A stretch of 16,524 nucleotides of DNA from a virus (lineage: Duplodnaviria; Heunggongvirae; Uroviricota; Caudoviricetes): IMG/VR virus record IMGVR_UViG_3300002348_000001, positions 3,455 to 19,978 of that record, one strand, 5' to 3'. Below the pieces are notes generated by a model, which saw only the letters and a list, made by a program, of their open reading frames with translations, searched no databases and had not been told where the DNA came from. Below, piece after piece: positions 1-16,522 of the stretch. How positions within the stretch are numbered: the stretch's first letter is position 1; each line of letters begins with the position of its first letter. A program made the translations under genes and the position numbers.

Positions 1-2652
1 GCTTATACCAAAATCAGCTCCACTTGTACCTACACCTAAAGTTTGTGCTGCTGTCGTCAATCCATTTATTGAGGAAATACCGTTTGCAAATGTTGTTGTT
101 ACGCTTGATATATTTCCATTCTCCGTGTATAAAGTTACTGTTTTACCATTAGGATTAACTATTTGAATCTCAATTACAATTCTATCTGTAAGAGCTAATG
201 TAACTCCGCTTGGTATACTAACTCCTAATGTATATAGGTCTTTAGTAGCACCATTAGTTAATTCTTCAATGGTACCACTACTAATTAGAGTGAGTGAGGC
301 TCCATCCCATTTCTTAACAACAGCTTGAATGGTTGCGGGACTTGCACCAATACCAGCTACAGAGAAATAACATTCAAATACCCAAATACCTCCAGGAACA
401 CTTAATTGATTAGGGTCTCCTATGTCAGTAATAAACGAAGCAATTGTTCCTATTGTACTGCTTGTAAAATTAGCAGATGTTCCACTGGCAGATAATTTAC
501 TTAACTGATACATTGTTGTACCTGCTATACTACCTTGGGATGTGTTTCCATTTAAATAATATACACTACCTCCACCACCACCACCCACTGTTGGGAATAC
601 ACCTAGTGTCCCATCACCACGTACATATTGACTTGATAATCCTGCGCCTGTTACAACAATACTTCCTGAGGAAGTTATTGGAGATAAAGACACTGTAAAT
701 GCTGAAGGCATTGTAAGCCCAACTGATGTAACTGTACCTACACTCCAGCTTCTATCTGCTGATAAGTCATAAGTAGTTCCATTAATTGTCAATGTTCTTG
801 ATGTAGGAACATAAGTAGATAGATCACTTGTTAATGCCAAAGTTCCTGTTGCTGAAGGGAATGTATATGAATATGGTAATGCAGTATTAAATAGTAGATT
901 ATGTGCTACTCCAAATCCCCCACCTGTTACATTAATAATTAAACCATTTGTTTGAGAACCTATTCCTGTATATCCATTAGCTATGGGGAAAGTTCCATTC
1001 TTAATATTTATACCTAAATCAAAATTCTTTACTCCTGTTATTGTTTGAGTATTTGCCAAAGTAACATACCCACTTAAATCTGGTGTATAATTTGGTATGT
1101 TAAATATACCTGTTAATGGATCATAAGTGGAAGCACCACTTGTACCAGTAGTAGTAAGACTAATAGCAGTTCTTGCTCTTGAATTTGTAAAATATAATTG
1201 AGAAGGTCTACCTGGAAGACTACCAGCTCCCTCAAATACATCTCCTGTTACAAGACTAACTGGTCCTGTATATCCATTTACAGAACTCACTGCATCTGTA
1301 TTATCCACTTTATCCCACGCAGTACCGTTGAATATAGCCCAATCCCCCACCTTCCAGTCTGTAATACCATCAAGATTTGTACTACCTGCTGCATTTACAA
1401 CATAATAATATCCTTTTGTTCCTACACCTGAAGTTAATGTAGGGGTATTAGTATTTGCGTTCCAAATTCCTTGGTAACTAACACTACCTAATAAAGCACT
1501 TATTTGATTCTGCACTTTACCAAAAGCTTGTAAAATAGTATCAGTGGAGACTATTGTTCCTCCACCTGTTAAATTAAGGCCTGTTAACACTTTACCTATA
1601 ACAGCAGAATTAACTAAAGATGGATTTGGATATGTTCCACTAAGCTCACCACCTGCTGCAATTCCTGAAATTGTGGAAAGTTTATTATTAAAAGTGTTCC
1701 AATCTGAAAAAGATAAATATCCATCTGTAGCAATATCAGCCTTTGAAATAGACACTGTAACAGTGCCTAATAAATTAGATGCAGATATAGGTGCTGTTCC
1801 CACTACACTAGAAACACCTGCTACAATAGACCAGCTTCTATTGGCTGAAAGATCGTATGTAACACCATTAATAGTGAGTGTTCTACTTTCTGGAACAGGA
1901 ACAAATCCTAATGCAGAAGTGATGTCCCCATAAACCACTGGAGTGGCTGATGTGACTAATCCTTTACCATTTACAGCGAATTTTAAGAAAGTATTGCTCC
2001 CATAAACATTAGTGTTTACAGTTTTTAATGTAAGTGTTACAGGGGATCCTGTAGATCCAGATCCTGTTACATCTCCCACAAAGCTTAATGAGGCTGATGG
2101 AAGTGCTATTAATTGAGGAGTGATATTAGTTACAAGTCCTTTTGCATTTACGGTGATTACAGGTACTGATATATCAGACCCATAAATACCAGGATTGGTG
2201 TTCACGGTAGATAGCGTAAATTGACTATTACCTGGGCCAGAAGCCACTCCATCACCATAAAGATCAGTAATATAGTCTCCAGCTGGTTGGTAAGTGGTGC
2301 TATCTAAAGATCCATCTCCTTTTACAAAATCAGAAGATGTTCCCCCAGTTGTAATAAATTTAGATGCTTCTAAAAATCCTGTAAAAGATAATGTATAATT
2401 ACCACCAATAGTGGTGTCTTGTAATAAAGATCCGCCTAATTGTACTATATTTCCTGGGGAAAGTTGATAAATACCGTTATTAAAAGCATAGCCTGCTGTA
2501 ATATCACCAAACTTAGCATCTATTTTTTGTAGAGCATCCTCTAACGTGTCATTTGTATTTATAGAAGTGTATATTAAATTAGCACCTTCGTAAAAAACGC
2601 AGGTGCTAGATAGTATCACTGGACACACTTCAGCAGAACAAGTAACGTTCAT
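1..2652 (-). CDS. Tail fibre / receptor-binding structural protein, partial (884 aa visible, continues past the left edge; absent from the ORF track)
   Basis: Manual translation from ATG at 2652-2650 gives no in-frame stop down to position 1 (MNVTCSAEVCPVILSSTCVFYEGANLIYTSINTNDTLEDALQKID...GTSGADFGIS). Gly/Ser/Thr/Val-rich, with motifs I recognise from phage fibres: VTVNAKGLVT x2, RTLTINGxTYDLSAxRSW x2, GGELSGTYPNP, YQGIWNANTNTP...GDWAIFNGTAWDKVDN, VSSVNGYTGPVSL, LYFTNSRAR, QTITGVKNF. The CDS is near certain; the product is inferred from motifs. Confidence 0.85.
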   Translation of the reverse strand, partial: MNVTCSAEVCPVILSSTCVFYEGANLIYTSINTNDTLEDALQKIDAKFGDITAGYAFNNGIYQLSPGNIVQLGGSLLQDTTIGGNYTLSFTGFLEASKFITTGGTSSDFVKGDGSLDSTTYQPAGDYITDLYGDGVASGPGNSQFTLSTVNTNPGIYGSDISVPVITVNAKGLVTNITPQLIALPSASLSFVGDVTGSGSTGSPVTLTLKTVNTNVYGSNTFLKFAVNGKGLVTSATPVVYGDITSALGFVPVPESRTLTINGVTYDLSANRSWSIVAGVSSVVGTAPISASNLLGTVTVSISKADIATDGYLSFSDWNTFNNKLSTISGIAAGGELSGTYPNPSLVNSAVIGKVLTGLNLTGGGTIVSTDTILQAFGKVQNQISALLGSVSYQGIWNANTNTPTLTSGVGTKGYYYVVNAAGSTNLDGITDWKVGDWAIFNGTAWDKVDNTDAVSSVNGYTGPVSLVTGDVFEGAGSLPGRPSQLYFTNSRARTAISLTTTGTSGASTYDPLTGIFNIPNYTPDLSGYVTLANTQTITGVKNFDLGINIKNGTFPIANGYTGIGSQTNGLIINVTGGGFGVAHNLLFNTALPYSYTFPSATGTLALTSDLSTYVPTSRTLTINGTTYDLSADRSWSVGTVTSVGLTMPSAFTVSLSPITSSGSIVVTGAGLSSQYVRGDGTLGVFPTVGGGGGGSVYYLNGNTSQGSIAGTTMYQLSKLSASGTSANFTSSTIGTIASFITDIGDPNQLSVPGGIWVFECYFSVAGIGASPATIQAVVKKWDGASLTLISSGTIEELTNGATKDLYTLGVSIPSGVTLALTDRIVIEIQIVNPNGKTVTLYTENGNISSVTTTFANGISSINGLTTAAQTLGVGTSGADFGIS
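739..810 (-). repeat. 24-aa fibre repeat, copy 2 (VPTSRTLTINGTTYDLSADRSWSV)
   Basis: 20/24 aa identical to the copy at 1825..1896, same frame. Confidence 0.9.
1825..1896 (-). repeat. 24-aa fibre repeat, copy 1 (VPESRTLTINGVTYDLSANRSWSI)
   Basis: 20/24 aa identical to the copy at 739..810. Confidence 0.9.
1939..2271 (-). repeat. Tandem pair of ~50-aa fibre shaft modules (GD..SG...TLxTVNTN..YGS.....VNxKGLVT..TP)
   Basis: Unit 1 at 2116..2271 is ITDLYGDGVASGPGNSQFTLSTVNTNPGIYGSDISVPVITVNAKGLVTNITP. Unit 2 at 1939..2088 is LSFVGDVTGSGSTGSPVTLTLKTVNTNVYGSNTFLKFAVNGKGLVTSATP. Confidence 0.75.
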
Positions 2653-2755: not shown

Positions 2756-5700
2756 TTATTTCATACTACTTTCTTTTTGTATAGTTATATCAAATTCTTT
2801 GGCAAACTCATTATTTAAAATTGCTCCATATGTTAAAGCAGACTTTGCTACAGGTAAAGCTTTTGCAGCATATTTAATAGGCATAGCTTTTTTCCTCACC
2901 TCTTCAGCAGATAATGTAGGATCTGTAATATCAAATCCTGTCACTTCTCTAACAAAGTGACTAGTAAACCTAGTATAATCTGTTATAAGTCCTATAGCTG
3001 GGAACATACTTCCACTCAAAAGACTTTCAAAATTGACAGGATTATAGAAGAAAGAAAGCTCTCCAACAAATTTATCTACCACTCTTTGTGAATACCTAAA
3101 GAAATTTTTGGTTGCTTTATCTTCTTCATCATCAGGAGCCATAAATCCTAGAGAAATCATCACACCTAATAAAGCCCCAAGAATAGCTAATTCTTTAATC
3201 TCGTTTCTTAGATTGGTTCTAATCATATCAGCAAAATCTTCTTTAGTCATGTTAAGAGTTTCACCTGTTCTTTTTTCGTATTTTTCAGCAAAATCCTCAT
3301 ACATTTTATCTATCAAAGCAATTCCCTTGTCATTCATTTGAATTAAATTCGTAATATTTGCTGATTTATCACGAATAGATGTTCCTAAAACATAAGCCAA
3401 AAGTCTAATTCTTCCTATATCATATTTCTCCCCTTTAACACCATCTTCATCCACTGTTACAGAAAAATCATCGCTCACTTTTCTAAATTCTGAGAAACGT
3501 GTATCAGCAAGTTTTGGTATCCAGCTTTTAAATAGCATCATACTATTTGTCCAAACAGACATTGACATTCTGTTAATATCTCCGTCAGACATACCTCCTG
3601 TTGCATTTCTAGAAATTCTTCTAGTTAGTTCTGTCAATCTTTGTAACTCCCTTTGATTTGAAAGATCTAATCCAGGAATTTCTAATTTACCGTTTACAAG
3701 TTTTTTAGTTACAGCTATAGACTTTGTTTTCTTAAGTTCTTCCACCTCTGCTTTTATAGCTTCTTTAGACTGTTTATATTCTGAAGAGGATTTATATCTA
3801 TTTTTGTATTTGTTTTTTACAAAATCATTAATATTAACAATTCTACCATTATCCACCATCATGTTTTCCAAAAGTGTGACAAAAATAGACTTTTCAATAA
3901 GTTGTTCTGGTTTTCTCATAAAAACCATTAGCATATCCCCTAAATTTTTTCTAGTGAGAGCAGTCATCCCTGCTTCATATTTATATATATCTGTAGATGG
4001 ATCATCTTTTAGAGGCATGAATGTATTAACTAATTGTACAAATATTTCTCTATCTTCTTCATTATCAAATCTTTGTACAGCTAATTTAGCTTGATTTTTA
4101 AGAAAGTCTCTTGCTTTAAAATAATCACCAGCTTGTGTAGCCACCTGTATATTACCTCCAAACATATTTACAGCTCCAGATATAAATTCAAACCCTAAAG
4201 CTTTTAATTGGAATGCTCTATTTGCTGCGTCCATAGTTTTTACTAAAGATGTAGCAGAAGGCTCCTCATCTATTTTAAATACTTCTCTGCCTGTAATAGT
4301 GTTTACACCATTTTTTACAAAGTTTAACACTTTACCTACATTTAAAGGAGTGTCTGTATCAGAAAGAACATACTTTTGTCCGTATAACAACACTCTTAAA
4401 AAGTCATCATACATTTTAGTGTTTTCTTCATTTCCTGGTATTTCTATTATTTTACCACCTTGTTTAACAACATTTGCTGATCTATCTGTAGCTAAATGCC
4501 CTTTAAATTGCTCTACAGTTTTTACTAATTGTAATTGTCCTTCTACAGCAGAAAGATATTTATACTTTTCCATTTGTTGGATGTATAAAATCATATTCTT
4601 AAAAAGATCTTCGCTTACGTCAGAATAATCATTTACACCATCTTTTCTAGTAAAATCATATGTGTAATACTTAGGAACAGAATTTTCTAGTTCACCTGTA
4701 AGCTCATTAAAACTTCCAAATCCTACATCATCTGTTTGCATTTTAAGACTCTCTGAAAAATTCTTTAAAGGAGAAATACTATGATCCCAAGCTAGTTCTT
4801 CAGCAGCTCCTTTCCTAACAAACGGTAGGAATGTTTTCATCACTTTATTAGTGATATATCCAGCCTCTTTAGCTTCTTCATTTATACTACCTATGAAATT
4901 ATAAAGTTCTAAAAGAATTGGATTTTTAAGAATGTTTTTGTATTCTTCTGAATACCATTTTGGGAGAGGATGTCTTTTAATGATATAGTTATTCCAACCA
5001 TTAAAGTTTTTATTATCAATATCCCACATCTCTTGAGCTTCTTTAATATTTTTAACTCTTATAGCCTCATTCTCATTTTTATCACTTGTATATATCTGTC
5101 TTTCTATTTTTTTAATTTGATCTTCAAGACGTTTATTAGCTTCTTTTTTATACTCCTCTACATCAATATTGTCTAAAAGCCATTGTTTATCTCCACCTTC
5201 TTTAGCTTTTGCATCCACTTCTTCATGGAATTTTCTGCTATATCTATGAATAAGTTTATTAACAATACCTCCTTTATCATCCTTTTGATATATCTGTTGC
5301 ACTATTGTTCTAAGATCTCCCCCCTGTTCTGCTAATTTCTTCCTAATATCCATTAGTTTTTGTACTCTTTCTAACGATGCTTTAGAAGCTTCTCCTTGGG
5401 CACCTCTCACCACTTTGTATAACAATTGTAATGCTTTAGAAGGAAGTTCTGATATACCTCTAAAATTAGAAGAAAGTCCTTTAATAACAGCTTCGGGGGA
5501 TAGAAGTCCAAATACAAGGTTTCTTTGCCCTACATGTTTATCTGCAAAATCCTGAGCAGCTTTCGTTAATTGTTCTTTTGATCTGTAAATAGCATTAGAT
5601 TGGGCCATCAACTGATCATGTATATCTTTTCTTCTTGCTACATCTTCTCTTTCTTCTTCTGTCTTAGCATTTTCCAACATATCCTTTGTATACACAAGGT

Positions 5701-8700
5701 GGCCTATGTCTCTTCCTATATTTTCAAAAACATCAATAATTCTTAAGTGCACTCTCATCTTCTCTGCAAAATCTGAAAGTTCTTTATTATTTGAATCGTT
5801 AGAAGAAGCTGGTCTATTTTTATAAATAGTGTTATAATCATTTAATAGCTGGTCACCCTCTTCTCTCATAATACCTACAACATCAATTAAAGAAGCAATA
5901 TTATTTTGTCCCTGTAAAAGACGAACAGCTTTTCTAATAGTGTTTAAACGCTCTATTTTAAATAAACGCTCATCATCATCTGTTACTTCTTCCTTGCCTA
6001 TTTGTTTAAGCATGGAATTTAGTTTTTTAATAATATTATCAAGATCTTCATATCCTGTAGATTCTGTTTGTTCAGAAACAGGCACAAGTCTAAGATCTTG
6101 TATTTTAGTTTTATCTATAGAACCTATAGCTATTCCTTTTAATTCAAGGCCAGAACTCTTATTGCCTTTTTCTTTATACCCAAAATCCATAGCTATTGGA
6201 ATAGCTCTATTCATTCCAAATTCTTTTATTCCATAAAAGTCTTTAAGAATATTTTTATATGTACCAAGCTGAATATCAAAGGCTCCTTGTTTAAACCATG
6301 CAACATCTTCACCGTTTATTTGCATAAACTTCCAATCAAGAATATGTCCTTTCCCCGAAGGATCTACAGCTAAGAAGTCTATTGTACCAGCTCTTTTATC
6401 TTTAGGATTGTAAACTATAACTTCCGAGAAAACTAATGCATCTTTATCTAATGTTTGTAAAAGACTTACATAATAGTTTTCCAACATATTATACATTTCT
6501 TCAGAAGGAAGATTGAATTTTACAGGTCTTGGATCAGGAGTGGTCTTTTTTGTACCATCTTTATTATAATATCTATTATGTATTTCTTCAAAATCAGCAT
6601 GCCCCTCCACCCCATATTTTCTTTTCATCTCGTTAAAAGCCTTTTCTTCTGGAGTGAATTTTTTATCTTTAAATCTTTTCTTATACCACTCTTTAACAAG
6701 ATCTGTCACCCTTTTGGTTATTTTTTGTTTTGTACCATCAGGAAGAGATATTTCATACCAGTTGGTAGACTCATCTGAATCTGCTAACACTTCATCAGAC
6801 TTTTCATCACTAACCACTTTGTTAATAGAATTTCTTGTTTCCTGTATTTTTTCTTGCACTTTCTTTTGTGCATCAGATAGTTGGTAAAATATTCCTCCTT
6901 CAGAAATATCAGAAATGGTTCCTCCCACCTCACCTTCAATCACTCTAGCTCCCACTTCTTCAAATATAGATATGTTGGATTTTCTATATACACCTCTTAT
7001 AAGATCTAATATTTTATTCCAAAAGTTTCTAAATAATGATTGAGTGGCTTCCTCCATTAATTCAGGATAGGCTTCTGTAGCTCCTGCTTTATTAATAATT
7101 ACTTCCACTAAAAGTTTATCTACAGCTTCTTTCTTTATTTTACGTATATCTGGTTTTCCATTAGGAAGTTTATATACATCTTTATATTGATCATAGACTT
7201 GTTTATATATCTTAAATCTATCTATTTTAGAAATCATTTCTGTAACAAGTCTTGGGTCCATTTGTTCTAAAATAGCTGTTGCTACGTGTACCATTTCTTC
7301 TGTGAGAGCAACATCTTCTTTCCCCTCTGCTACAGCAATTATCCCTCTAACAAGATCTGCCAGTCCATTTATTCCTTTTGTTGTTACGTCTTTATTACCT
7401 TTTAAATAATCAGAAAGCTGCTGAATACTAATACCCATTTTTTTAGCAGCTTCCTTCACCTTAGAAAGTGTTTCAGCAGAAGCCTTAGAAGCAGGCATTC
7501 CTTCTTTTTGTAAAAGAATTTGTTTCTGTTCTCTTTCAGGAACAATTTCTACTTCATTCCATGTATTACCATATTCATCTGTAATTTGTTTTACATTATC
7601 CTTTCCGTATTGTTTATTTAAAATATTCTTTACAGTGTTCTCATAGAAGTTGTATATAGGTTTTAAAGCACCAAAACCATTTTTTTCAACATCTTCAAGC
7701 TCTTTTTTAAGTTGATTTATTTCATTTTTAGTTTCTTCTGAAAACTTACTTTTTAAAGATTCAATTTCTTCTTTAGTAGCTGTTTTTTCTCTACCTGTTT
7801 CATTGCTTACTTTTCTCCAAGTTAAAACCTCATTACCATTTTCATCTTCTAAATATCTTTGAATATAATAAAATCCATCAACATTTTTATTTTTTAAAAT
7901 ACTAGATTCTTCAAGTTCTTTAATTCTATTTTCTTTTTGTTTCTTAAACTCTTCTAATGTTGTATGTCCTTCTACTTTACTAGCTGTATTACCAGAAGGG
8001 AATAACACTTTCTCATATCCTTTTTTAGCACTATCTTGTAGAATAGATTTAATAAAGAATGTAACCCAGTTAGAGTTTTTGTTTAGAAGTTGGAGGAATT
8101 GATTATCTGAACTATTATCTCCTCTTTCATCAAATCTTTTTTCTAACGCACTTCTTCTTAAAGTAGCTGTTTTACCTTCTTGATTTGAAATTGTAATTAA
8201 TTCATAAAGATTAGAATCTGTGTCAATATTTGTAACTGTAAACTTTTCACCATTAGATATAAATGTATCTCCTACTTTTTTAATATCAAGCTTTTTAGAA
8301 AGAACTTTACTATCTCTACCCTTCTGAAAAAGATCAGATTGTACTTCTAGTATTCTACGAGTTGTAGTAGGTGTACCTCCAACACCAGGAATGCCATTTT
8401 TTTCTAATTCTTTAGCTGCTTGAGCACCTTCAGTATCTCTAACTTCTTCTATTTCTTGAGGTAGTGCTTTTCTATTTTGAATACCAACTATAGAATCATC
8501 ACTTCTAAACCAACCAATACCTTGATCTGTAGCAAACTGAGCATGTCCTTTAATAGAAGGAGTAATAGCTGGTGTAGCTATTTCATTTTCTGTATAATTG
8601 GTTCCTCCTGGAACTGTTAGGTTAGAATATACAGAACTATTATTAGCAGCTCTTTGAGTATTAAAAGCTCTGTTAGCCTCTTCTAATGTTTTAAAAATTG

Positions 8701-9208
8701 CTATATCAGGATCCCCATCTTCTGTAATATATTCAATAAAATAATCCCCAACTTCAGCTCCTAAAGCCATAGCAGAATTTTCATCGGTTATTTGTTTAGG
8801 TTCAGAACTTTTACCATAAATATCAGAACCTATTTTATTTTTAGCAACATTAATCTCAATAGCATAACTATAATTAGCTAACATGTTGGTAATCAACTCA
8901 TTACGATCTGTTGTATTAAATGATTTGAGAAGTTCTATTTGGTCTTTAGGAATACTAAGATCAGATTGTACCTTGTTCCAAAAAGCATCTCCTTTCACTC
9001 TATTCTTTTCTAAGGAAGAAAAAAGTTTAATAGCCTTCTCAGATTGTAAAGCATCTACAGATTTTAATCCAGCTTTAACAATAGAACTTTTACTCTCACT
9101 TTCAGGAACATTTCCTTCATAAAGATCCCATAAAGCATAAGCAACATTCTCTCCTCTAGCTGCTACTAACAATTTCCAAGAATCAAGATTTATATTAGGA
9201 CATGCCAT
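2756..9208 (-). CDS. 2150-aa multidomain (polyvalent) virion cargo / ejection-type protein: EVQSD domain + zincin-like domain + PD-(D/E)xK nuclease + helical C-terminal region with hydrophobic segment
   Basis: Uninterrupted ORF, ATG 3 bp after the RNAP stop (TAA AAT ATG, A at -3), TAA stop at 2756-2758. Domain motifs are listed as separate features. The virion/ejection role is inferred from size, position between RNAP and tail fibre genes, and helical composition. Confidence 0.75.
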   Translation of the reverse strand: MACPNINLDSWKLLVAARGENVAYALWDLYEGNVPESESKSSIVKAGLKSVDALQSEKAIKLFSSLEKNRVKGDAFWNKVQSDLSIPKDQIELLKSFNTTDRNELITNMLANYSYAIEINVAKNKIGSDIYGKSSEPKQITDENSAMALGAEVGDYFIEYITEDGDPDIAIFKTLEEANRAFNTQRAANNSSVYSNLTVPGGTNYTENEIATPAITPSIKGHAQFATDQGIGWFRSDDSIVGIQNRKALPQEIEEVRDTEGAQAAKELEKNGIPGVGGTPTTTRRILEVQSDLFQKGRDSKVLSKKLDIKKVGDTFISNGEKFTVTNIDTDSNLYELITISNQEGKTATLRRSALEKRFDERGDNSSDNQFLQLLNKNSNWVTFFIKSILQDSAKKGYEKVLFPSGNTASKVEGHTTLEEFKKQKENRIKELEESSILKNKNVDGFYYIQRYLEDENGNEVLTWRKVSNETGREKTATKEEIESLKSKFSEETKNEINQLKKELEDVEKNGFGALKPIYNFYENTVKNILNKQYGKDNVKQITDEYGNTWNEVEIVPEREQKQILLQKEGMPASKASAETLSKVKEAAKKMGISIQQLSDYLKGNKDVTTKGINGLADLVRGIIAVAEGKEDVALTEEMVHVATAILEQMDPRLVTEMISKIDRFKIYKQVYDQYKDVYKLPNGKPDIRKIKKEAVDKLLVEVIINKAGATEAYPELMEEATQSLFRNFWNKILDLIRGVYRKSNISIFEEVGARVIEGEVGGTISDISEGGIFYQLSDAQKKVQEKIQETRNSINKVVSDEKSDEVLADSDESTNWYEISLPDGTKQKITKRVTDLVKEWYKKRFKDKKFTPEEKAFNEMKRKYGVEGHADFEEIHNRYYNKDGTKKTTPDPRPVKFNLPSEEMYNMLENYYVSLLQTLDKDALVFSEVIVYNPKDKRAGTIDFLAVDPSGKGHILDWKFMQINGEDVAWFKQGAFDIQLGTYKNILKDFYGIKEFGMNRAIPIAMDFGYKEKGNKSSGLELKGIAIGSIDKTKIQDLRLVPVSEQTESTGYEDLDNIIKKLNSMLKQIGKEEVTDDDERLFKIERLNTIRKAVRLLQGQNNIASLIDVVGIMREEGDQLLNDYNTIYKNRPASSNDSNNKELSDFAEKMRVHLRIIDVFENIGRDIGHLVYTKDMLENAKTEEEREDVARRKDIHDQLMAQSNAIYRSKEQLTKAAQDFADKHVGQRNLVFGLLSPEAVIKGLSSNFRGISELPSKALQLLYKVVRGAQGEASKASLERVQKLMDIRKKLAEQGGDLRTIVQQIYQKDDKGGIVNKLIHRYSRKFHEEVDAKAKEGGDKQWLLDNIDVEEYKKEANKRLEDQIKKIERQIYTSDKNENEAIRVKNIKEAQEMWDIDNKNFNGWNNYIIKRHPLPKWYSEEYKNILKNPILLELYNFIGSINEEAKEAGYITNKVMKTFLPFVRKGAAEELAWDHSISPLKNFSESLKMQTDDVGFGSFNELTGELENSVPKYYTYDFTRKDGVNDYSDVSEDLFKNMILYIQQMEKYKYLSAVEGQLQLVKTVEQFKGHLATDRSANVVKQGGKIIEIPGNEENTKMYDDFLRVLLYGQKYVLSDTDTPLNVGKVLNFVKNGVNTITGREVFKIDEEPSATSLVKTMDAANRAFQLKALGFEFISGAVNMFGGNIQVATQAGDYFKARDFLKNQAKLAVQRFDNEEDREIFVQLVNTFMPLKDDPSTDIYKYEAGMTALTRKNLGDMLMVFMRKPEQLIEKSIFVTLLENMMVDNGRIVNINDFVKNKYKNRYKSSSEYKQSKEAIKAEVEELKKTKSIAVTKKLVNGKLEIPGLDLSNQRELQRLTELTRRISRNATGGMSDGDINRMSMSVWTNSMMLFKSWIPKLADTRFSEFRKVSDDFSVTVDEDGVKGEKYDIGRIRLLAYVLGTSIRDKSANITNLIQMNDKGIALIDKMYEDFAEKYEKRTGETLNMTKEDFADMIRTNLRNEIKELAILGALLGVMISLGFMAPDDEEDKATKNFFRYSQRVVDKFVGELSFFYNPVNFESLLSGSMFPAIGLITDYTRFTSHFVREVTGFDITDPTLSAEEVRKKAMPIKYAAKALPVAKSALTYGAILNNEFAKEFDITIQKESSMK
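3137..3190 (-). other. Candidate transmembrane helix LAILGALLGVMISLGFMA (aa 2007-2024)
   Basis: 18 consecutive uncharged, mostly aliphatic residues, followed directly by the acidic PDDEEDK. Confidence 0.55.
6240..6630 (-). other. RecB-family PD-(D/E)xK nuclease domain
   Basis: Motifs in canonical order: YGVEGH(870)ADFE, SE(929)VIV, AGTID(944)FL, ILD(958)WK(960)F, Q(980)LGTY(984). No Cys cluster, so not an Fe-S Cas4/AddB type. Confidence 0.8.
7070..7450 (-). other. Zincin-like metallopeptidase fold with variant motif EEMVH (7286..7300, aa 637-641)
   Basis: GINGLADLVRGIIAVAEG (strands) - ALTEEMVHVATAIL (HExxH-position helix with the first His replaced by Glu) - KKEAVDKLLVEVI (helix with a candidate third ligand). 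Boundaries approximate. Confidence 0.55.
7545..8629 (-). other. Unassigned conserved-looking domain with EVQSD motif (possibly GNAT-like), interrupted by insertions
   Basis: YSNLTVPGGTNYTENEI...KGHAQF...GIGWFRSDD / RRILEVQSDLFQKG / NWVTFFIKSILQDSAKKGYEKVLFPSG / FYENTVKNILNK. This resembles an (E)E[IV]QSD..Q + W....K..l..A...Gy..v pattern I recall from large phage-injected proteins. No family name can be supported without a search. Confidence 0.45.
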
Positions 9209-9211
9209 ATT

Positions 9212-12200
9212 TTAACATTTATTATTTTTAATTATTGTTCCTGCTTCAGCCAATGTGTAGCCCATGTCTACAAGCATTTTTGTGTTTAATTGCTCAGATG
9301 AATATGTTTTTCCATCTTTAAGAGACACTGTTTTTTCAGTAGTTGTAGACTCCAAAGATACTAAATTTTCATCTAAATATGATAAAATTTCATCATCTTC
9401 TTTTTCTTGTTCCACTTTTAAAAATCCATTATCTATCTTAGATTTTTTAGCTACATCATACATTTCTACAGCCCTGAAAGAGTCTCCCCAAGCATTAACC
9501 ATTTTATAAATATATTCAGTAATAACAATATTTTGTCCATCTTTATTCATTGTATATTCATTAGTAAATGGTATATCTCCGCTATATATTTTTTTGAAAA
9601 GTCCTTTTTTAATATAAGAATAATCACCCTTCTTTCTCATAGCTTCTTTCTCATATTTATTTCCCACTTCCCATGTAAACACAACATAGTCAGAGTCTGC
9701 TTCCCTGGATTTTGTATTAAACTTAATCAATTGAGGAATATCTCCAGTTTCCATAGGTTTATTAAACCCAGATAAATTTCTAAAAAAATCAAAATTTTTA
9801 TATCTCCAATTACCAAATTGATCTTGTTTTTTAACTAGTCTTCTACTAGGAACAACATCTCCATCATTCCAATTATTTCTTTGAAAAACTCCTAATTTAT
9901 AAAAATCATTAAGATTTGGAATTGTCTCAAGCTTTGATAGGGTCTTATTGTAGATTTCTTTAAAATCTTCATAAGGAATAAGAGATGTAAATGATATTGG
10001 AGACCTATTTAATCCAGATTGCAAAACAGCGAGCCTAACTAAGTTTCCATATAAAGGACTTTTTATACCTTTAAAGTATTGTTTTAGTTCTTCAAAAGCA
10101 TAGATAATTTGATTTTGATCATACACTTTATTATCTCTACCAACAATCTTTAAATTGTTTGTTCCGTTTTCTAGTTTTTGAGAAAATACAGGAACAAGAC
10201 TATTTATTAAAATATTATCTTTTAAAGGATGTTTGCTAGATTTTTTAACATCTACAATAAAATCTGACATTTGTTTAGCCACATTGTTATTTTCTAAAAG
10301 AATTCTTTGTACCATTGTATTAAGATCTCTATCATTCTGCACTGCCCAATCAAAAAGATCATTCACTGCCTTTTGAGAAATTTTAACAAAATCCCTATCC
10401 GATTCATTTATATACGGAAGTAACACTTTTTCCATAACTCCTCTAACATTAGTTTGGTCAGAAACAAGTATTGTAGAAAGAGCATTTCTTAATTTAAGCA
10501 ATAAATCACTTAAATTTCCTATGAAAGAATTTTCTAATATATCATCTACAGAAGATATAATAGATGTTTTTGCTTTTTTAAGTTGTTCCATTTTCTTAAA
10601 TACTAAAAATGGATCATTAAAAGAAGCTGTATCAAAATTAGAACCCTGTGTAACTAAGTATAGCTGATTAGCCATCTTAGCATACTTAACAAACTCAGAT
10701 AGGATAAATCTTTGATCTGCTTTCTGCTCTGGAGATAAATTTTCTCCTTCTCCAATCATATCCCATAATTTACTCTTGCTAGGTATTTTAGTGGGCTTTG
10801 TAATAGATGAATCATATTTAGAAATAACATCTTCAAATATGTCCCCAATAAATAACCAAGAATACCCAGACCTTTCTATGGATTTTAAATAATCTCTCAC
10901 AATGGGTTGGTTCATGAAATAAGCAATAGTGTCGATTGGTACACCTATCTTAGCTAAAAACAACCATGTACTAGCTACATTAGGAGTGGCTCCTAATTCC
11001 ATAATCCAGGGTCCTTTAGATATATCCACATATCCATCAATAAACTGTCCATTTATATCTGATATATCTTGGCCTTCTGCATTTTCTATCATAGAAAGTG
11101 TAGGAACTTTTTCTCCATCCACTTCTATACTGTTATACTGTTCAAAGTTAATTTCTGCATCACCCAACCACTCTCTGTCAGCAGCATCCTGTATTGCTAA
11201 TTTATTTTTATCTATGTAAATAGGAGATCTCTGATTTAATGAGTGATTAGTTTGACTTACAGCAGCAATACCAATAGCATATTTACCACTAACAAATGCT
11301 TGTCTAAGTCTTGACATAAACACCCTGTTTAGCATGTTTCCTGTAGAATCATAGTTAAAAGCCCCCACTCCTAATTTATCAGAGATTTTTTTAGATAAAT
11401 CTTTAAGTTGATCTGCGGAGTTTGGAGAAGTAAGTCTTTTGAAATTTTTAGGATGAGAAACAAGTTTTTCACAAGACTCTATATATTCATTTTCTAAAGA
11501 CTCTTTGTACATTTTGTCTTTAAACTCTTCTAATAAAATCTGCTGTACATCCCAATTAGTTAATTCAGAAAGTTTTTTACCAAGTTTTTCTAATCTTTTT
11601 ATAAAAATTTCCTCAATATCAGCAACTAATAATTTACCGTCTTCAGTTTCTTTTTCAAACATTTGTTTAAAAATAGGAATCCATTTATTAGCTGTTTTGT
11701 CACTAGATATTCCCAAAGAAATATCACTGAATAAAGACTGTAAATCAGCTGTAGATATTTTTTTAGCTTCTGCTTTATCTATTTTGCTTTGTAAAATATC
11801 AAAGAAAATATCTTCATATTTATTTTTGTTATTAGGATCTATACCAAAAAATGGTACAATCTCTATATTTCCTTTAGCATTTTTAAATACGTTTTTAAAG
11901 TATATAGAAAGTTTATCTATATCAAAGTCAGATCCCACTTTCTGAACCAATGCTGAGGGAATTACAACAGAGTCTCCAAATTCCTTAGGAAGAAATCTTT
12001 TAATTTTAAAAACATCAATAGAGTTTTGCTTTTGTGTAGGAATACGGTATGCAAGTCCAGATAGAATTTTTTGTCCTTCTGGAGTTTCATTTAAATATTT
12101 TAAAAGCTCTTCGTCAGACAAATCACTCTTAAACCATCTACCCACCATTATTTCACACACACGTTTACCATCCTCATCCTTATAAAACTCAAGAGTGTCA

Positions 12201-15200
12201 GATGTATATCCTAGTTTTCCGTTAATTTCTCTTAATTCTGTTTTTGTAGATTCTAATAAAGCAGCAGGAATTTGTACTTTTAATCCACCAGAAATTTTAG
12301 GAGAAATTACTTCCTTATCTGCTATGGAATATAAAATATTTCTTATTTGTTGGTAGGCAGGTGTGGCCTCTAATATTACAGAACCTTGTGCATAATTTCT
12401 TACAGCCTCACTTATATTATCATTAACCTCTCTTTTTAATAACTCTTGTCTTAAAAACTCTGCAACTTTTTCAACATTATCTGGTTCAATAACATATCCA
12501 TCAGTAGTTTCTGTTATATGCAATTTATTCAATAAAGAGTTATATCCTTCTGTAGCAATAGCTTCTAAAAGATTTTGATTGTTTTTTATTTCTTTATAAA
12601 GAGTAGATTCTTTTATTCTACCTTCTTCGTCTAATGCATACCAAGCTTTATACCTTTCTGGAAATGTTTTTGTTTCTTCAAAGTCTACAGGAACTCCTGC
12701 TTCCATATAATCCATAGTGATGAGTTTTGTCACCTGGGATCCTCTAGTTACCAAAGGAGTGTCTTTAGAAGGCACTTCAGATTGAACACTCATTATGTCA
12801 AAAGGAACATTGAACACTCCTTCAAACTCATTAGTGTTAAAACTACCATCCTCGTTATATACAGAATTAGTTTTTTCAGCTCCCACTTTTCTAGCACTCT
12901 TAAACACTACATAATCAATGTTTTCTTCCTGCATTTTATCATAAAGCTTTAATGCGTTGGAAGAAGCATTTATCTCATACATCACTCTATATGATAATGG
13001 ATATAATGCAAACTTGTCTAGCATTACATCATTGTAATTTTTACCATTATCTTTATTTCCAGCTACAATAGGTTTAACTGGTGTATAAGCACTCTTTGCA
13101 GCAGGATTCTTATTAAGAAGCTTTTGTAACTCTTCCTTAGAGGCTCCTGATTTAGCAGCTTCTTCAAATTTAATATCAAACTTATATTGAAGCTCTTCGT
13201 TTTCATTCCATTCTCCAGAACGAATTCTAAAATTTCTATACGCTTTAAAAGAAATTATACCACTACCATCCGTTTCTTCATATTCTTTATATCCAGGAAG
13301 ATCAATCACTCCTACAATATCAGCTAGTGTTGTGGTCTTAAAGTAATTTTTATTAAAATCTGTATACCCTAAATCTCCTTTTTTAAAGCCTTTATTCCAA
13401 ACATTATTTAATAGTGAATTTATATTGTCTGATCCTAATAAACGTTGTCTAGGAGAGAGAAAGTTTTTAATACGTTTTAATTCATCGCTGTATTGATAAG
13501 GATCTGAATATAATAACTTATGAAGTTCTATATTGTTAATCATAAAGTTGATATTCAAAGCTGTCAACTCTCTGTTTAAATCATCAATATTTTCAAACAC
13601 AGACTCTGAAAGTGCTATGTTTTCCACTTCCCAGCCTAAATCTGTTTTATTTATAATACCATAAGAAAGTAAATTATTTCTAAATTTATTTACATCTTCC
13701 TCAATAAAACTCTTTAGAGCAGCATTAATTTTTGACTCATATTTTTTATAAACTTCTTCTGGAGTTCCAGTTTCTTTCACAATATCATTATGCAACTTCT
13801 CTCCAAGAATAGGTTTAAAGAATCTAAGATCTGTACTTTTTCTAGTTTTTGTCTCTTTTGTGTTTCTATTTACATCTCTAGATAATAGTAATTCTGAAAT
13901 AAAATATCCTTTAAATATTTTATTAACATCTTCCATTCCTGTAGCTCTTAATCTTTTTACAGAAACATGATTACCCATATATGCCATCCATTCCATAGAA
14001 GCATCTCCAGGGACAAGATTCATATAATATCCATTAAGATTTAAATTAATTTCTTGTATTAATCTTTCTCTATAGGTTAACTTAGAAGATTCTTTTTTCT
14101 TACCACTCTGTTCATTAATTGTACCATCTACATATCCTATAGATAAATAGTTTTCAATATCTTCTCTTTTTTCCCCTGTCTCTAAATTAAACATTTTGTT
14201 TAATATAACAGAATTCTTAACAAAAGAATCTGTTAATAAATACTGATATTGAGCGGGAACATCATTTAAATTGTTAACCTGAGAAAGTACATCGTAAAGA
14301 TCACTACCAGGATTGGTTCCTATAAAAGACTGCACTCTTTCTCCATTAAGATTGAAATATGTACTGTCAAATTCTGGAGTGGTAATTATTGCTTTTATTG
14401 TAGCTAGTTTTAATAGCTGGCCCTCAATATCTAACACCTTACCAGATATAGTGGCTATTTCTTTAGCTTGCTCAATACTTGTTCTAATACCATCTACAGC
14501 TGTGTTAAATACTTTTAATTTATCACTGTTAAGAGATTTTAATTCTTCCTCTGTAAAAGATATTCCTAATTTTTCTAAAAACGCTATTCTTGCTGATGCA
14601 CTTAAAAGAGTTTTAGGAACAGATTTAGGCTCTCCTTTAAATCTTCTAGTCTTATCATCATATACAAAATAAGAACTTTTCTTAGTTTTTATTGCATCAA
14701 CTATTTGAGAAATAAAATCTGATCTTAATTGTCTTGCTGCAGAAGAAAGATTTGAATCTCCTATTACAACATCATCATTAGAAAGAATAAACACTGCTTT
14801 TACATCAGCATTCATTTTCTTAAATGTTTTCCAGAATGAAGCAAGTAATTGGGCCTCATGTGGTTCTGTTAAATTAGAATAATCAATTCCTTTAACAGTT
14901 ATAGCAGATTTAGTAAGTCTTTCATATAATGTTTTATAATTATTATCTTTTAAACCTAATTCTTTAAGTCCTTGTAACATTTCTTCTATAGTCTTGGCAC
15001 TATGAACTTGGTTCATTACTTTCATAAAAACCTCACTAGTAGGAATTAACTTAGCACCATTCACTGTAGAACGGTCCATATTACCATCTCTATCCACTCT
15101 AGCAACAGTGGATAATAACATTTTTATAGCTGCATTAGCCTTTTTAAAATTGTCAATTTTTCTAGCATCTTGATAATCTGATTTTCCAGAATTGTTCTCA

Positions 15201-16522
15201 TCTGTTAATGTTGCATTATCATTCTCATCAAATTCTATTGAATATCCTCTTAAATATTCCTCGTGTTTAAATTTAAACTCATCCCAATTATCTTCTACAG
15301 CCTTCCATAAAGCAAGAGATTTTTCTATGTGAGGAGCCCCTTGTTTTTCTGTAAATGTACCTTTCTCAATTAAAGCTTTTGTAGAACTTACAGTTTTAAG
15401 AATGTCTTTTTGAACTTGGTCTTTTAATTTTATATATAATTCCGTTTTGTTAATATTTGGAATAGTAAAAAAGCTTTTATTATCTCTGAAAATATTCTTT
15501 AAAGTGAGGTAGGTCATGTTTTGTATAACATCATGTCTTTCCTGACCATTCATTCCAATTATACTAAACTCTGCCCCAGCATTTGCAATAGCTTCTTCTA
15601 TATCAATCACTCCTTCTTTAGCGAAAGAAAGTGCTGAGTGATATGGAGAATATTGTTTGTAATATCCATTTCCTATTTTAGAGAATAGTTTTTCTGTATT
15701 ACTTCCAGCCTTATTTCCTGTAAAAAATTCCTTAATAAAACTAACGAGGTCTGCAAATAATTTTAATATAAATGGTCTTCCAGAAGTTGGTTTACCTGGA
15801 ATTTTTTTATACATTACATAATCTCTAAACTCTTCTGCTAGTTGTTCTTTAGCTTCTTGATTAGTGGCCTCAGAATATTTAACTTCTTTTCCTGTAGGTC
15901 TGTCTATAAAAGAACCTTTTCTAGCTTTAAACTCAGCTAATACATTAGCTTGTTCTTCAGCATCAGAAAACATTTTCCATACAGCTTCAAAAACCTCATG
16001 GTAAACAGTGCCCACTTCCGCATTCTCATATATGTATATAGCACCGTCTTGAAACATACCCCAAGCTTGTCTACCATTAGTAGCTTGTATTACATTCTTC
16101 ACTCTATATACAGGAACATTTGGAAAGTTTTCTTTTAACCACTTTTCCACCTTCTGCCAATTCTCTCCCTCAAATTTTTCTATTTCTTTAGCAATTTTCT
16201 CTCTAAACACAGGACCATCTTCATCAGAAGATTCCATCATTTGTCTTCTTATTTTGTCAAGATCTGACTCTGTCATTCCTTCAGATGCAATTTCTGTTTT
16301 AGCTTCCTCACTTATAATTTCTGCTGCTACAGGAGCTGTTTGTTCAGCCACTTTCTTTTTATATTCTTCTATCTGTGGAGCTAAAGTTTTTACAATTGAT
16401 CCTGCAAAAGCATCTTTAATTTGTTCTTCTGGTGCGTTAAGATCAGCTATTGCTTTTTCGATACCATCTCCAGACAGTTCTCCTTGAAACACTCCTTTTA
16501 TAGCATCATATGAAAAATTAAT
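9212..16522 (-). CDS. Virion-associated single-chain two-barrel (DPBB) DNA-dependent RNA polymerase, crAss-like / phi14:2 gp66 type, with N-terminal zincin-like domain; 5'-truncated
   Basis: Catalytic GSDFDIDKL at 11909..11935 (D1522/D1524/D1526 in ORF-track numbering), YRIPTQ at 12032..12049, TDGSGIIS at 13250..13273, also PVKP, FKSARKVG, GSQVTKL, SGKYAIGIAA and FIDGYVDISKGP (bridge-helix-like, ~11010..11045). The frame is open upstream of the GTG at 16492 (..INFSYDAIKG-V) to the window edge. Confidence 0.9.
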   Translation of the reverse strand: MNFSYDAIKGVFQGELSGDGIEKAIADLNAPEEQIKDAFAGSIVKTLAPQIEEYKKKVAEQTAPVAAEIISEEAKTEIASEGMTESDLDKIRRQMMESSDEDGPVFREKIAKEIEKFEGENWQKVEKWLKENFPNVPVYRVKNVIQATNGRQAWGMFQDGAIYIYENAEVGTVYHEVFEAVWKMFSDAEEQANVLAEFKARKGSFIDRPTGKEVKYSEATNQEAKEQLAEEFRDYVMYKKIPGKPTSGRPFILKLFADLVSFIKEFFTGNKAGSNTEKLFSKIGNGYYKQYSPYHSALSFAKEGVIDIEEAIANAGAEFSIIGMNGQERHDVIQNMTYLTLKNIFRDNKSFFTIPNINKTELYIKLKDQVQKDILKTVSSTKALIEKGTFTEKQGAPHIEKSLALWKAVEDNWDEFKFKHEEYLRGYSIEFDENDNATLTDENNSGKSDYQDARKIDNFKKANAAIKMLLSTVARVDRDGNMDRSTVNGAKLIPTSEVFMKVMNQVHSAKTIEEMLQGLKELGLKDNNYKTLYERLTKSAITVKGIDYSNLTEPHEAQLLASFWKTFKKMNADVKAVFILSNDDVVIGDSNLSSAARQLRSDFISQIVDAIKTKKSSYFVYDDKTRRFKGEPKSVPKTLLSASARIAFLEKLGISFTEEELKSLNSDKLKVFNTAVDGIRTSIEQAKEIATISGKVLDIEGQLLKLATIKAIITTPEFDSTYFNLNGERVQSFIGTNPGSDLYDVLSQVNNLNDVPAQYQYLLTDSFVKNSVILNKMFNLETGEKREDIENYLSIGYVDGTINEQSGKKKESSKLTYRERLIQEINLNLNGYYMNLVPGDASMEWMAYMGNHVSVKRLRATGMEDVNKIFKGYFISELLLSRDVNRNTKETKTRKSTDLRFFKPILGEKLHNDIVKETGTPEEVYKKYESKINAALKSFIEEDVNKFRNNLLSYGIINKTDLGWEVENIALSESVFENIDDLNRELTALNINFMINNIELHKLLYSDPYQYSDELKRIKNFLSPRQRLLGSDNINSLLNNVWNKGFKKGDLGYTDFNKNYFKTTTLADIVGVIDLPGYKEYEETDGSGIISFKAYRNFRIRSGEWNENEELQYKFDIKFEEAAKSGASKEELQKLLNKNPAAKSAYTPVKPIVAGNKDNGKNYNDVMLDKFALYPLSYRVMYEINASSNALKLYDKMQEENIDYVVFKSARKVGAEKTNSVYNEDGSFNTNEFEGVFNVPFDIMSVQSEVPSKDTPLVTRGSQVTKLITMDYMEAGVPVDFEETKTFPERYKAWYALDEEGRIKESTLYKEIKNNQNLLEAIATEGYNSLLNKLHITETTDGYVIEPDNVEKVAEFLRQELLKREVNDNISEAVRNYAQGSVILEATPAYQQIRNILYSIADKEVISPKISGGLKVQIPAALLESTKTELREINGKLGYTSDTLEFYKDEDGKRVCEIMVGRWFKSDLSDEELLKYLNETPEGQKILSGLAYRIPTQKQNSIDVFKIKRFLPKEFGDSVVIPSALVQKVGSDFDIDKLSIYFKNVFKNAKGNIEIVPFFGIDPNNKNKYEDIFFDILQSKIDKAEAKKISTADLQSLFSDISLGISSDKTANKWIPIFKQMFEKETEDGKLLVADIEEIFIKRLEKLGKKLSELTNWDVQQILLEEFKDKMYKESLENEYIESCEKLVSHPKNFKRLTSPNSADQLKDLSKKISDKLGVGAFNYDSTGNMLNRVFMSRLRQAFVSGKYAIGIAAVSQTNHSLNQRSPIYIDKNKLAIQDAADREWLGDAEINFEQYNSIEVDGEKVPTLSMIENAEGQDISDINGQFIDGYVDISKGPWIMELGATPNVASTWLFLAKIGVPIDTIAYFMNQPIVRDYLKSIERSGYSWLFIGDIFEDVISKYDSSITKPTKIPSKSKLWDMIGEGENLSPEQKADQRFILSEFVKYAKMANQLYLVTQGSNFDTASFNDPFLVFKKMEQLKKAKTSIISSVDDILENSFIGNLSDLLLKLRNALSTILVSDQTNVRGVMEKVLLPYINESDRDFVKISQKAVNDLFDWAVQNDRDLNTMVQRILLENNNVAKQMSDFIVDVKKSSKHPLKDNILINSLVPVFSQKLENGTNNLKIVGRDNKVYDQNQIIYAFEELKQYFKGIKSPLYGNLVRLAVLQSGLNRSPISFTSLIPYEDFKEIYNKTLSKLETIPNLNDFYKLGVFQRNNWNDGDVVPSRRLVKKQDQFGNWRYKNFDFFRNLSGFNKPMETGDIPQLIKFNTKSREADSDYVVFTWEVGNKYEKEAMRKKGDYSYIKKGLFKKIYSGDIPFTNEYTMNKDGQNIVITEYIYKMVNAWGDSFRAVEMYDVAKKSKIDNGFLKVEQEKEDDEILSYLDENLVSLESTTTEKTVSLKDGKTYSSEQLNTKMLVDMGYTLAEAGTIIKNNKC
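11909..11935 (-). other. RNAP metal-binding DxDxD motif (GSDFDIDKL)
   Basis: Direct translation. DFDID is the crAss-like counterpart of the cellular NADFDGD motif. Confidence 0.92.
15700..16160 (-). other. Zincin-like metallopeptidase fold with variant motif HEVFE (15986..16000)
   Basis: AWGMFQDGAIYIYENAEVGTVYHEVFEAVW ... KEQLAEEFRDY (15827..15847 for EQLAEEF) ... FILKLFADLVSFIKEFF. Typical zincin layout, but the second His of HExxH is Glu. Boundaries approximate. Confidence 0.65.

Follow-up and report, generated by a model that had tools for sequence, protein, structure and literature searches.

Paired terminal cysteines and matched end modules at cargo protein junctions of crAss-like phages suggest a disulfide-linked clasp

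Why should two giant phage proteins, both nearly free of cysteine, each place one at the gene boundary that they share? The question is raised by a phage DNA of 16,524 nucleotides (the whole stretch that was analysed, here called the window), in which the gene of a virion RNA polymerase ends directly before the gene of a 2150-residue protein. Both genes, like the other features described below, are on the minus strand. Read 5' to 3' on that strand, the boundary consists of TGT (9215..9217), the stop codon TAA (9212..9214), a 3-bp spacer (9209..9211), ATG (9206..9208), GCA and a second TGT (9200..9202). The first TGT encodes the last residue of the polymerase and the second encodes Cys3, the sole cysteine of the 2150-residue protein. 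The polymerase gene (9212..16522) is open at the window edge, so that the window holds the C-terminal 2436 of its 4157 amino acids. Cysteines in this part are at 1456, 1684 and 2436, and the full-length protein in the genome has the same three only, none of them close to its N-terminus. Contigs from four public sequencing runs, three of which may be the source of this DNA, span the junction with zero differences. An RNA run carrying this sequence was sought among public runs, and none was listed. At the interior cysteine frequency of relatives (0.018%, 1.8e-4), the chance of a cysteine among the last 10 residues is P ~0.002, and that of one at positions 2-6 is P ~0.001. Codons, translations and chance estimate confirm what had first been noticed here, a polymerase ending in cysteine followed by a protein whose only cysteine is residue 3. 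No Rfam match of note was found at the junction. The stop codon and spacer (9209..9214) have no conserved read-through frame, because the spacer length varies between -1 and 19 bp among relatives.

Alignment of relatives shows that each cysteine belongs to a small terminal module. The last 37 residues of the polymerase (9215..9325) contain an invariant Leu, an invariant Gly and the terminal Cys. Residues 1-35 of the next protein (9104..9208) contain invariant M1, C3, N5, W11, W27, G32 and P35. The original prediction had described terminal modules set off by linkers. The modules hold, but part of the supposed linker belongs to the N-terminal module, which reaches approximately Pro35, because G32 and P35 are invariant.

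The polymerase is a relative of crAss001 gp50 (tblastn E 3e-12) and phi14:2 gp66 (E 9e-9). It gives a profile match to PDB 6VR4 (E 6e-19), which is the structure of gp66 in whose description the DFDID catalytic motif was reported (bioRxiv 10.1101/2020.03.07.982082); the motif is found here at 11915..11929. The N-terminal half of the protein matches gp47 (E 1e-34) and gp65 (E 7e-10), so that the 4157-residue polymerase is a gp47/gp65-like half fused to a gp50/gp66-like half. The approximate joint (15550..15700) was placed by comparison with the split genes of relative L047: the gp47 match stops at residue 1995 and the match to the L047 polymerase begins at 2045 of 4157. There is no cysteine at this joint, whereas split relatives have a cysteine pair at the corresponding junction. 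The 2150-residue protein (2756..9208) occupies the gp49/gp67 position and has a free C-terminus without cysteine. It gives no direct BLAST match to gp49 or gp67 but does match, weakly, the C-terminal region of polyproteins that are fully fused; position and these matches together suggest that it is the third cargo protein. The DFDxD motif, the gp66/gp50 homology and the gp65/gp47-like and gp67/gp49-like partners place the polymerase in the gp66 family; virion packaging and ejection have been shown for its homologues. Searches of PHROGs, Pfam and, with single sequences, PDB using both giant proteins returned nothing except a sub-threshold HTH.

Is the cysteine pair a peculiarity of this phage? 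It is conserved across the order, which was the test named beforehand. In relatives selected solely by their polymerase sequence, a terminal cysteine is present in 73 of 73 polymerases and a Met-x(1-3)-Cys start in 72 of 72 next proteins, while the free ends of cargo proteins have none (0/51 and 0/60). In this set the C-terminal cysteine is followed by 0-6 residues and the N-terminal one is at positions 3-5; more widely the ranges are 0-8 and 3-6. A more distant set has 35 complete polymerases, of which 25 have cysteine at the end, and all 24 next genes start with Met-x-Cys; of the ten remaining polymerases, eight have at least 2180 residues past DFDID, as expected if they are fused to the third protein. 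The rule also holds in crAss001, phi14:2, crAss002 and one crAssphage isolate. In phi14:2 the sole cysteine of gp65 is at its end, gp66 has only Cys 3 and 2179, and gp67 has only Cys 3. There are exceptions: the polymerases of L216 and L225 lack the terminal cysteine (the nearest lies upstream by 130-170 residues), and in L199 and L225 no partner is visible for a Met-x-Cys protein.

The pattern in crAss001 is like that in phi14:2, with gp47 C2339 facing gp50 C5 and gp50 C2404 facing gp49 C5, although its gp47 is on the opposite strand, and the cysteine chain is kept with the same inverted arrangement in DAC17 and cr128. For this reason the order of the chain is that of the proteins (gp47/gp65-like, polymerase, gp49/gp67-like) and not, as originally predicted, that of the genes; the chaining itself is supported. 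A further check proposed at the outset, whether the coupling extends to the polymerase's own N-terminus and to the gene upstream, came out negative. No cysteine is near that N-terminus and the two cargo ORFs upstream, of 919 and 1388 residues, have zero, hence we reject a chain that reaches these channel-type proteins. The proteins at the homologous positions in crAss001 and phi14:2 likewise lack terminal cysteines.

When cargo genes are fused the cysteine pair is lost, and when a gene is split a pair is gained. Complete fused polyproteins of 4933-5542 residues have no cysteine at all (nor do P0053, P0060 and P0103). In Intestiviridae a different pair of proteins is fused, and cysteines are kept only at the junction that remains. 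One apparent split without cysteine, L091, is probably a frameshift of the near-identical intact L090 and was left out as redundant. Fused, cysteine-less remnants of both modules were sought within proteins; the only find was an isolated motif resembling the C-module, in a single small clade, so a natural single-chain clasp was not found.

The end modules, which relatives gain, lose and exchange, fall into ~19 matched types, which are scattered on the polymerase tree (a quick version, with three long branches unsure). C- and N-modules co-vary as cognate pairs, in agreement with the original expectation: r is 0.82 after polymerase similarity is removed and 0.71 without the largest type. The nearest neighbour of the C-module predicts the N-type in 66 of 69 cases, compared with 25 of 69 for the nearest neighbour of the polymerase core. 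Adjacent modules could co-vary partly through single recombination events that move both. In Steigviridae pairs that are not adjacent, the same type is matched on both sides in 3 of 3, with low scores. L047 has one N-module type at two junctions, meaning that module type does not encode a strict order in every case. The N-module has no named family in the ESM Atlas. The cysteine rule, its loss on fusion, its gain on fission and the cognate pairing of module types are shown by these genomes.

Complex prediction gave a score of 0.45 (best control 0.02), with runs agreeing in at least 86% of contacts and partner pLDDT of at least 71. This reaches a mark attained by 58 of 80 solved pairs and by 2 of 110 mismatched ones; with scores of 0.60 or less, however, the mark was attained by only 7 of the 80 and by both mismatches. 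The prediction thus lends weak support to an interface between the termini. One cysteine per partner is conserved in co-varying modules, with a weak predicted-complex score.

The third cargo protein contains a conserved accessory domain with an EVQSD motif (7529..8638). It is intact in the window and seven relatives, and spanned in 132 of the top 150 representatives, but in other relatives, one of them 91% identical, it is interrupted by cassettes of clasp modules and GIY-YIG homing-endonuclease genes. One module type travels with these genes, and three insertion sites lie within this one domain. The first, between Lys395 and Lys396 (8023/8024, within 8021..8026), is empty here and holds a clasp/GIY-YIG/clasp cassette in L029 and L140; the others are near 8498 (L203, L204) and near 8321 (L119-L121, L201, L202). 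Cargo genes that are split by an endonuclease and carry added terminal tails occur in all of these and in L100 and L123-L125. In the predicted fold (pLDDT 54, poor, in a first run and 79 in a deep run) the insertion site separates a helix from a strand in a block of pLDDT 89-93. The fold gave no clear match to a solved structure, only generic helical hairpins, which does not show a new fold, and no named family in the ESM Atlas. The cassette endonuclease has its five best matches all within clasps, while the window's own junction has no endonuclease gene and the cassette module type is also found without one (L043, L200). The upstream module has its cysteine at the distal end, and the downstream module has it at the start. 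Outside the endonuclease ORF the cassette has only 224 nt, and the flanking sequences vary mostly at synonymous sites, being conserved as protein. A group I or II intron of a catalogued kind around the ORF was rejected because of this short remainder and these protein-like flanks, and because seven cassette loci gave no Rfam match up to E 1. A split intein was also rejected: the window proteins and split pieces have no Pfam intein match, the modules are of 30-40 residues and the cysteine geometry is wrong, since an intein has Cys or Ser at the start of its N-half and Asn followed by Cys, Ser or Thr at the end of its C-half. Sequence comparison shows mid-domain insertion to be the derived state, accompanied by endonuclease genes.

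What could such modules do? We consider it probable, though far from certain, that they are cognate docking modules whose cysteines are likely disulfide-linked, and that the link replaces a peptide bond so that the cargo is packaged and ejected like a single thread. The final ~37 residues of a cargo protein would pair with the matching initial ~35 residues of its successor to give a clasp. On docking, the only two spare cysteines would meet, and an interchain disulfide would be the most likely outcome. The clasp would then stand in for a peptide bond in a chain of ~5000-6500 residues made by one, two, three or more genes, possibly with optional links besides the gp47/gp65-like protein, the polymerase and the gp49/gp67-like protein. 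Tied end to end, each protein may pull the next through the tail in N-to-C order. After entry, cytoplasmic reductants could release the chain, or the docked halves could refold together. We infer physical docking of cognate modules with strong confidence, the disulfide with moderate confidence, and the role in threading and later release with moderate to weak confidence.

Published work provides some context. Disulfides between subunits do occur in crassvirus virions, and partial unfolding of the cargo is expected during ejection (PMC10172136). A covalent tie would be useful because such unfolding would break non-covalent contacts. In N4-like phages cysteine is suppressed in ejected proteins (PMC11445570); hence a cysteine that is retained is likely functional. 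Recombinant gp66 alone, purified with DTT, is active on single-stranded DNA (bioRxiv 10.1101/2020.03.07.982082), so catalysis does not require the link. Virion assembly takes place in the reducing cytoplasm, which is a point against a disulfide. No thioredoxin-type motif was seen among the ORFs of 80-400 residues in the genome, which is ~75% complete. A literature search on disulfides or cysteines in crAss cargo or ejection proteins, covering few subscription papers, returned nothing relevant, and a clasp that links separate proteins in a chain, as the pattern suggests, seems not to have been described.

Several other explanations should be weighed. The same docking might bring the two cysteines together on a metal such as Zn, with a terminus or with four ligands shared by two junctions of neighbouring chains. 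A metal is compatible with the reducing cytoplasm, and several copies of each cargo protein are present per virion, so four cysteines could meet (PMC10172136). Neither module has a conserved His or further Cys in the alignments, however, and ~19 unrelated module folds with one common cysteine per side fit a bond between two residues better than a site with four ligands. We think this explanation unlikely. A similarly small chance is given to a clasp that serves assembly, co-packaging or rejoining after delivery and not threading, with a disulfide forming as a stabiliser only after lysis or in the periplasm. Mid-domain insertions do require the two halves to be together when the domain works, and the NrdA tails of phage Aeh1 achieve this without a covalent bond (PMC3045599). 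Yet non-covalent docking does not need an invariant cysteine in every type, given strong selection for cysteine-free sequence. An assembly role and threading are not mutually exclusive.

It is very improbable that the cysteines drive protein ligation (thioester formation or transpeptidation, perhaps via zincin-like domains) into a peptide-linked polyprotein. Equivalence to gene fusion and the association with homing endonucleases do recall split inteins, but short modules without an intein family match, a non-intein cysteine geometry with 0-8 residues beyond the C-terminal cysteine, and the report of gp47, gp49 and gp50 as separate proteins speak against it. We give equally little credence to each cysteine acting alone, through lipidation or by bonding to part of the capsid, the portal or the host, without any chain. 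A gene for a CPBP/Rce1-like protease lies within the junction of L003 and L005, but sister L004 lacks it, there is neither a signal peptide nor the fixed spacing of a CaaX box, and it would be left unexplained why the free ends lack cysteine, why both cysteines disappear together on fusion and arise together on fission, and why the types match. That no protein feature is involved (chance, a DNA or RNA boundary signal, read-through of the stop codon or, in the cassettes, a self-splicing intron) is largely refuted and scarcely credible: TGT prevails among the cysteine codons (57/72 and 67/72) and the window's spacer is in frame, but TGC is used too, cysteine offsets and spacer lengths vary, pairs persist between non-adjacent genes, and the cassettes argue against an intron as described above.

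If the disulfide-linked clasp is correct, it has several consequences. A broken gene would still yield a continuous chain, which would allow homing-endonuclease genes to be carried within the clasp and to divide cargo genes, even in mid-domain. We see an even chance that clasps are portable, orthogonal and disulfide-locked, a reversible substitute for the peptide bond that threads cargo, accepts extra effector domains and hosts endonucleases by a third route into essential genes, next to splicing at the RNA and at the protein level. Such a route would render mobile endonucleases harmless inside essential genes. The clasp would also account for the free splitting and fusing of cargo genes, and ~19 short orthogonal covalent pairing tags might be of use in protein engineering. 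No other phage order is as abundant in the human gut as that of the crAss-like phages. How several megadaltons of podovirus protein are ejected in order through a channel of <50 A is an open question (PMC10172136, PMC13434306). The cysteine rule predicts a cross-link, perhaps already within existing non-reduced data, as crAss001 samples have been run by mass spectrometry both reduced and untreated (PMC10172136).

Other systems share some of these features. The closest are the Crassvirales cargo proteins themselves: the phi14:2 gp65-gp66-gp67 and crAss001 gp47-gp50-gp49 sets (the latter being separate proteins, PMC10172136) are homologous, with DFDID and the same terminal cysteine pattern. Fusion into a single polyprotein is known in some of these phages, while here the gp47-like protein and polymerase are fused. 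Schitoviridae ejection proteins (N4 gp50, DEV gp71) also include an ejected virion polymerase with strong cysteine suppression, attributed to passage through the periplasm (PMC11445570). These are, however, one chain that keeps no terminal cysteine, and their polymerase fold is unrelated to that of crAss phages.

In modular polyketide and peptide synthetases, short terminal docking domains of several orthogonal classes order giant proteins head to tail. They are non-covalent and lack an invariant cysteine; the likeness to clasps is one of design, and homology is not expected. In genes fractured by split inteins, the joining halves flank an endonuclease gene, which gives the same layout of fragment, joining half, free-standing endonuclease, joining half and fragment. 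The clasp differs in having no intein domain, far shorter modules and a cysteine geometry unfit for splicing, and it probably remains in the mature proteins. Another parallel is Aeh1 NrdA-a/NrdA-b, where a gene split by mobE regains function without splicing through short retained C- and N-tails (PMC3045599). The Aeh1 tails are a one-off without homologues, charge-based and unneeded for the heterodimer itself, with no cysteine pair reported (PMC3045599). The crAss clasps, by contrast, are order-wide, come in ~19 reusable matched types with an invariant cysteine on each side, and are found at ordinary gene borders as well as at several sites of one domain.

The virus record that contains the window is 84 kb long, about 75% complete and of lake-water origin. 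We identify its large polymerase by sequence as a crassvirus virion polymerase because it carries the DFDID motif, resembles crAss001 gp50 and phi14:2 gp66 and gives a profile match to PDB 6VR4. Read on the minus strand, its gene ends with a Cys codon (9215-9217) and a stop codon (9212-9214); after a 3-bp spacer, the next gene starts with Met-Ala-Cys (Cys codon 9200-9202, minus strand). The full polymerase (4157 residues) has Cys at 3177, 3405 and 4157, the protein that follows it (the third protein, 2150 residues) has a single Cys, and the products of the upstream cargo genes (919 and 1388 residues) have none. Two of the four Cys among the 8614 cargo residues thus lie at this junction, which public contigs span without differences. 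The downstream tail-fibre-like gene (window 1-2652) starts with a conserved Cys-x4-Cys-x7-Cys, found also in most relatives' next genes; it is unrelated to this pair.

Conservation of the pair across crAss-like polymerase clusters, as the original prediction proposed, is borne out. Relatives were picked on polymerase sequence alone, to keep Cys from biasing the sample, and copies above 90% identity were removed. All 73 polymerases have a Cys within their last 1-7 residues, and all 72 large genes next after the polymerase encode one at position 3-5. Within 30 residues of free ends there is none (0/51 fused N-termini, 0/60 last C-termini), and interior Cys, mostly one conserved core residue, have a frequency of 1.8e-4. 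Junction spacers range from -1 to 19 bp, and at two loci an unrelated gene lies inside the gap. A CPBP/Rce1-like intramembrane protease gene (PF02517, E 1e-13) separates the Cys-ended polymerase from its partner at L003:11542-12006 and L005:11507-11962; the sister locus L004 lacks it, and it is probably an inserted extra gene.

In a second sample of more distant relatives, 25 of 35 complete polymerases end in this way and 24/24 next genes start Met-x-Cys. Eight of the ten polymerases without the terminal Cys are long enough after DFDID for fusion to the third protein, and the other two are real exceptions to the rule or else mis-assemblies. In these two (L216:6086-14842 and L225:6296-14473) the last Cys is 130-170 residues from the end and the next gene begins with an EAEG motif.

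The same rule is obeyed by cultured and gut phages. In phi14:2, gp65 has no Cys other than its last residue, gp66 carries Cys 3 and 2179 only, and the single Cys of gp67 is residue 3. In crAss001, gp47, whose gene is on the opposite strand, has one at 2339 of 2341, gp50 has Cys 5, 1334 and 2404, and gp49 has Cys 5 only. DAC17, cr128, cr50, cr55, cr108 and Flavobacterium phage FpV4 follow the rule as well. Since such phages comply, crAss001 with its opposite-strand gp47 among them, the feature is a property of the proteins and not of the gene boundary. In crAss002, the crAssphage isolate (CrAssphage C0531BW4) and cr110 (L108, L109 and L115), the zincin protein ends Cys-x, the fused C-ends lack a terminal Cys, and the polymerase begins Met-Ser-Cys once we shift its annotated start downstream by 14-32 codons; by the Cys rule, this re-assigned start is likely the true one. 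In cr108, about 290 non-coding bases without a Cys pair (L112:15002-15293), likely an intron, break the polymerase gene exactly at the catalytic motif.

The 35-40 residues beside the Cys form about 19 module types, 12 of them with at least two members; the window's pair belongs to the commonest. The expectation that the two termini co-vary as cognate pairs also held. With the Cys left out and polymerase similarity removed, C-module similarity predicts N-module similarity (r 0.82; 0.71 without the largest type), and neither tracks the polymerase (r about 0). Picked by C-module, the nearest neighbour shares the N-type in 66/69 cases, against 25/69 when picked by polymerase core, and well-supported sister polymerases frequently carry different types. 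DNA linkage accounts for part of this co-variation; the non-adjacent pairs (crAss001, DAC17, cr128) have the same single type on both sides in 3/3 cases, with low scores. Complex prediction for the two termini on window-type alignments reached its mark with a score of 0.45 (best control 0.02), at least 86% of contacts agreeing between runs and partner pLDDT at least 71. The mark is passed by 58/80 solved and 2/110 mismatched pairs, and at scores of 0.60 or under by just 7/80 solved pairs and both mismatches; the interface put forward originally receives weak support from modelling. One relative (L047:531-17856) has a single N-module type at both junctions, and chains that are out of order, branched or cyclic could conceivably form there. 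In one small clade (L056, L017, L009) the C-module motif recurs without Cys inside the polymerase, about 400-500 residues before its C-terminus.

Gene fusions suggest what the pair might do. The window polymerase is by its matches a fusion protein: gp47, gp65 and a 2015-aa L047 gene correspond to its first half, and the 2149-aa L047 polymerase corresponds to its second. At the matching border L047 carries a Cys pair, which the window fusion lacks. Full cargo-polymerase fusions are known (10.1101/2020.03.07.982082), and complete polyproteins of 4933-5542 residues (L209, L213, L220, L239) are entirely Cys-free. Conversely, extra links with Cys at both ends stand between polymerase and third protein in L007 and L089, and L123, L124 and L140 have chains of four to six links. 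Among 150 proteins with one accessory domain in common, 118 begin with Met-x-Cys and 50 terminate in Cys. Since the pair is lost on fusion and gained with extra links, it is inferred to be equivalent in role to a peptide bond.

The strongest sign that the modules would physically re-join proteins comes from cassettes (C-module, endonuclease gene, N-module) inserted in mid-domain, because the halves of one fold must meet. In relative L029, a third protein 91% identical to the window's is encoded as two pieces (421 and 1739 residues) with a GIY-YIG/NUMOD3 endonuclease gene between them. The break corresponds to Lys395/Lys396 of the window protein (8023/8024), a loop from a long helix to a strand in the predicted model of the intact domain. 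In the 888-nt insert, the 29 codons ahead of the endonuclease gene close with Cys-x-stop and the 33 codons after it begin with Met-Ala-Cys. The split state is derived, since the motif inside which the break falls runs uninterrupted in the window and in seven further relatives and a single protein spans the EVQSD-type accessory domain in 132 of 150 top representatives. Three sites in this domain take cassettes, one after residue 237, one after about residue 296-300 and one after residue 395, and in L100 one lies at the border preceding the polymerase. They match no catalogued intron, and changes in their flanks are mostly synonymous. The best five distinct matches of the L029 endonuclease, and about a dozen overall, lie inside such Cys-bearing module pairs, its more distant relatives outside them in other contexts; L043 and L200 have the same module type without an endonuclease. 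A 38-bp gap upstream of the L029 endonuclease gene (L029:14399-14436) has TTG about 20 bp before TATCTTTG, resembling the Bacteroidetes host promoter consensus, which suggests that the gene has its own promoter. Endonucleases of L118-L121 have a Cys 6-7 residues before their own C-terminus and might conceivably be linked into the chain themselves. The EVQSD domain (window 7529-8638, minus strand) belongs to a family of more than 1000 clusters in which a His, Glu, Gln and Asp are invariant, and has neither a Pfam match nor a clear solved fold; it moves among cargo proteins, and two of its three hypervariable loops accept cassettes.

Head-to-tail physical linkage of the cargo proteins is very probable. 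Docking modules would bring the two Cys into register for an interchain disulfide, a chemistry that we consider fairly likely. Inter-subunit disulfides exist in crassvirus virions at the tail and portal vertex, the cargo has to unfold in part to get through constrictions of less than 50 A, and the order in which it leaves is thought to depend on protein-protein interactions (PMC10172136). A covalent end-to-end tie would outlast unfolding where docking alone would fail. In N4-like phages, ejected proteins purge Cys, presumably owing to periplasmic disulfide catalysts (PMC11445570), which already-paired Cys would escape. The pair could instead bridge a metal; with one Cys per side, many unrelated module types and no other conserved ligands, a two-residue bond fits better. 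An assembly-only role of the modules is another less likely alternative; true protein ligation through the Cys pair and independent modification of each Cys are improbable. A nucleic-acid explanation of the Cys codons is the weakest; both TGT and TGC are used at relatives' junctions. The disulfide reading taken whole, with docking and chained cargo, is a little less secure than its chemistry, though still favoured. Thioredoxin-like genes annotated near the cargo cluster of several gut crassviruses (L109, L112, L117) probably serve nucleotide reduction; they are also candidates for redox control of the pair.

The cargo proteins belong to a known family. The paired modules, which may be called a clasp, are real, conserved and undescribed: no published description was found in a partial coverage of the literature, and as a system the clasp would be new. 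The tests run spoke against an intein, an intron, a lipobox and a CaaX signal. The clasp would act like the tails of Aeh1 NrdA (PMC3045599), split inteins around free-standing endonucleases and the docking domains of synthetases. Unlike these, it alone has an invariant Cys pair, and it combines many reusable types with order-wide use in ejected cargo.
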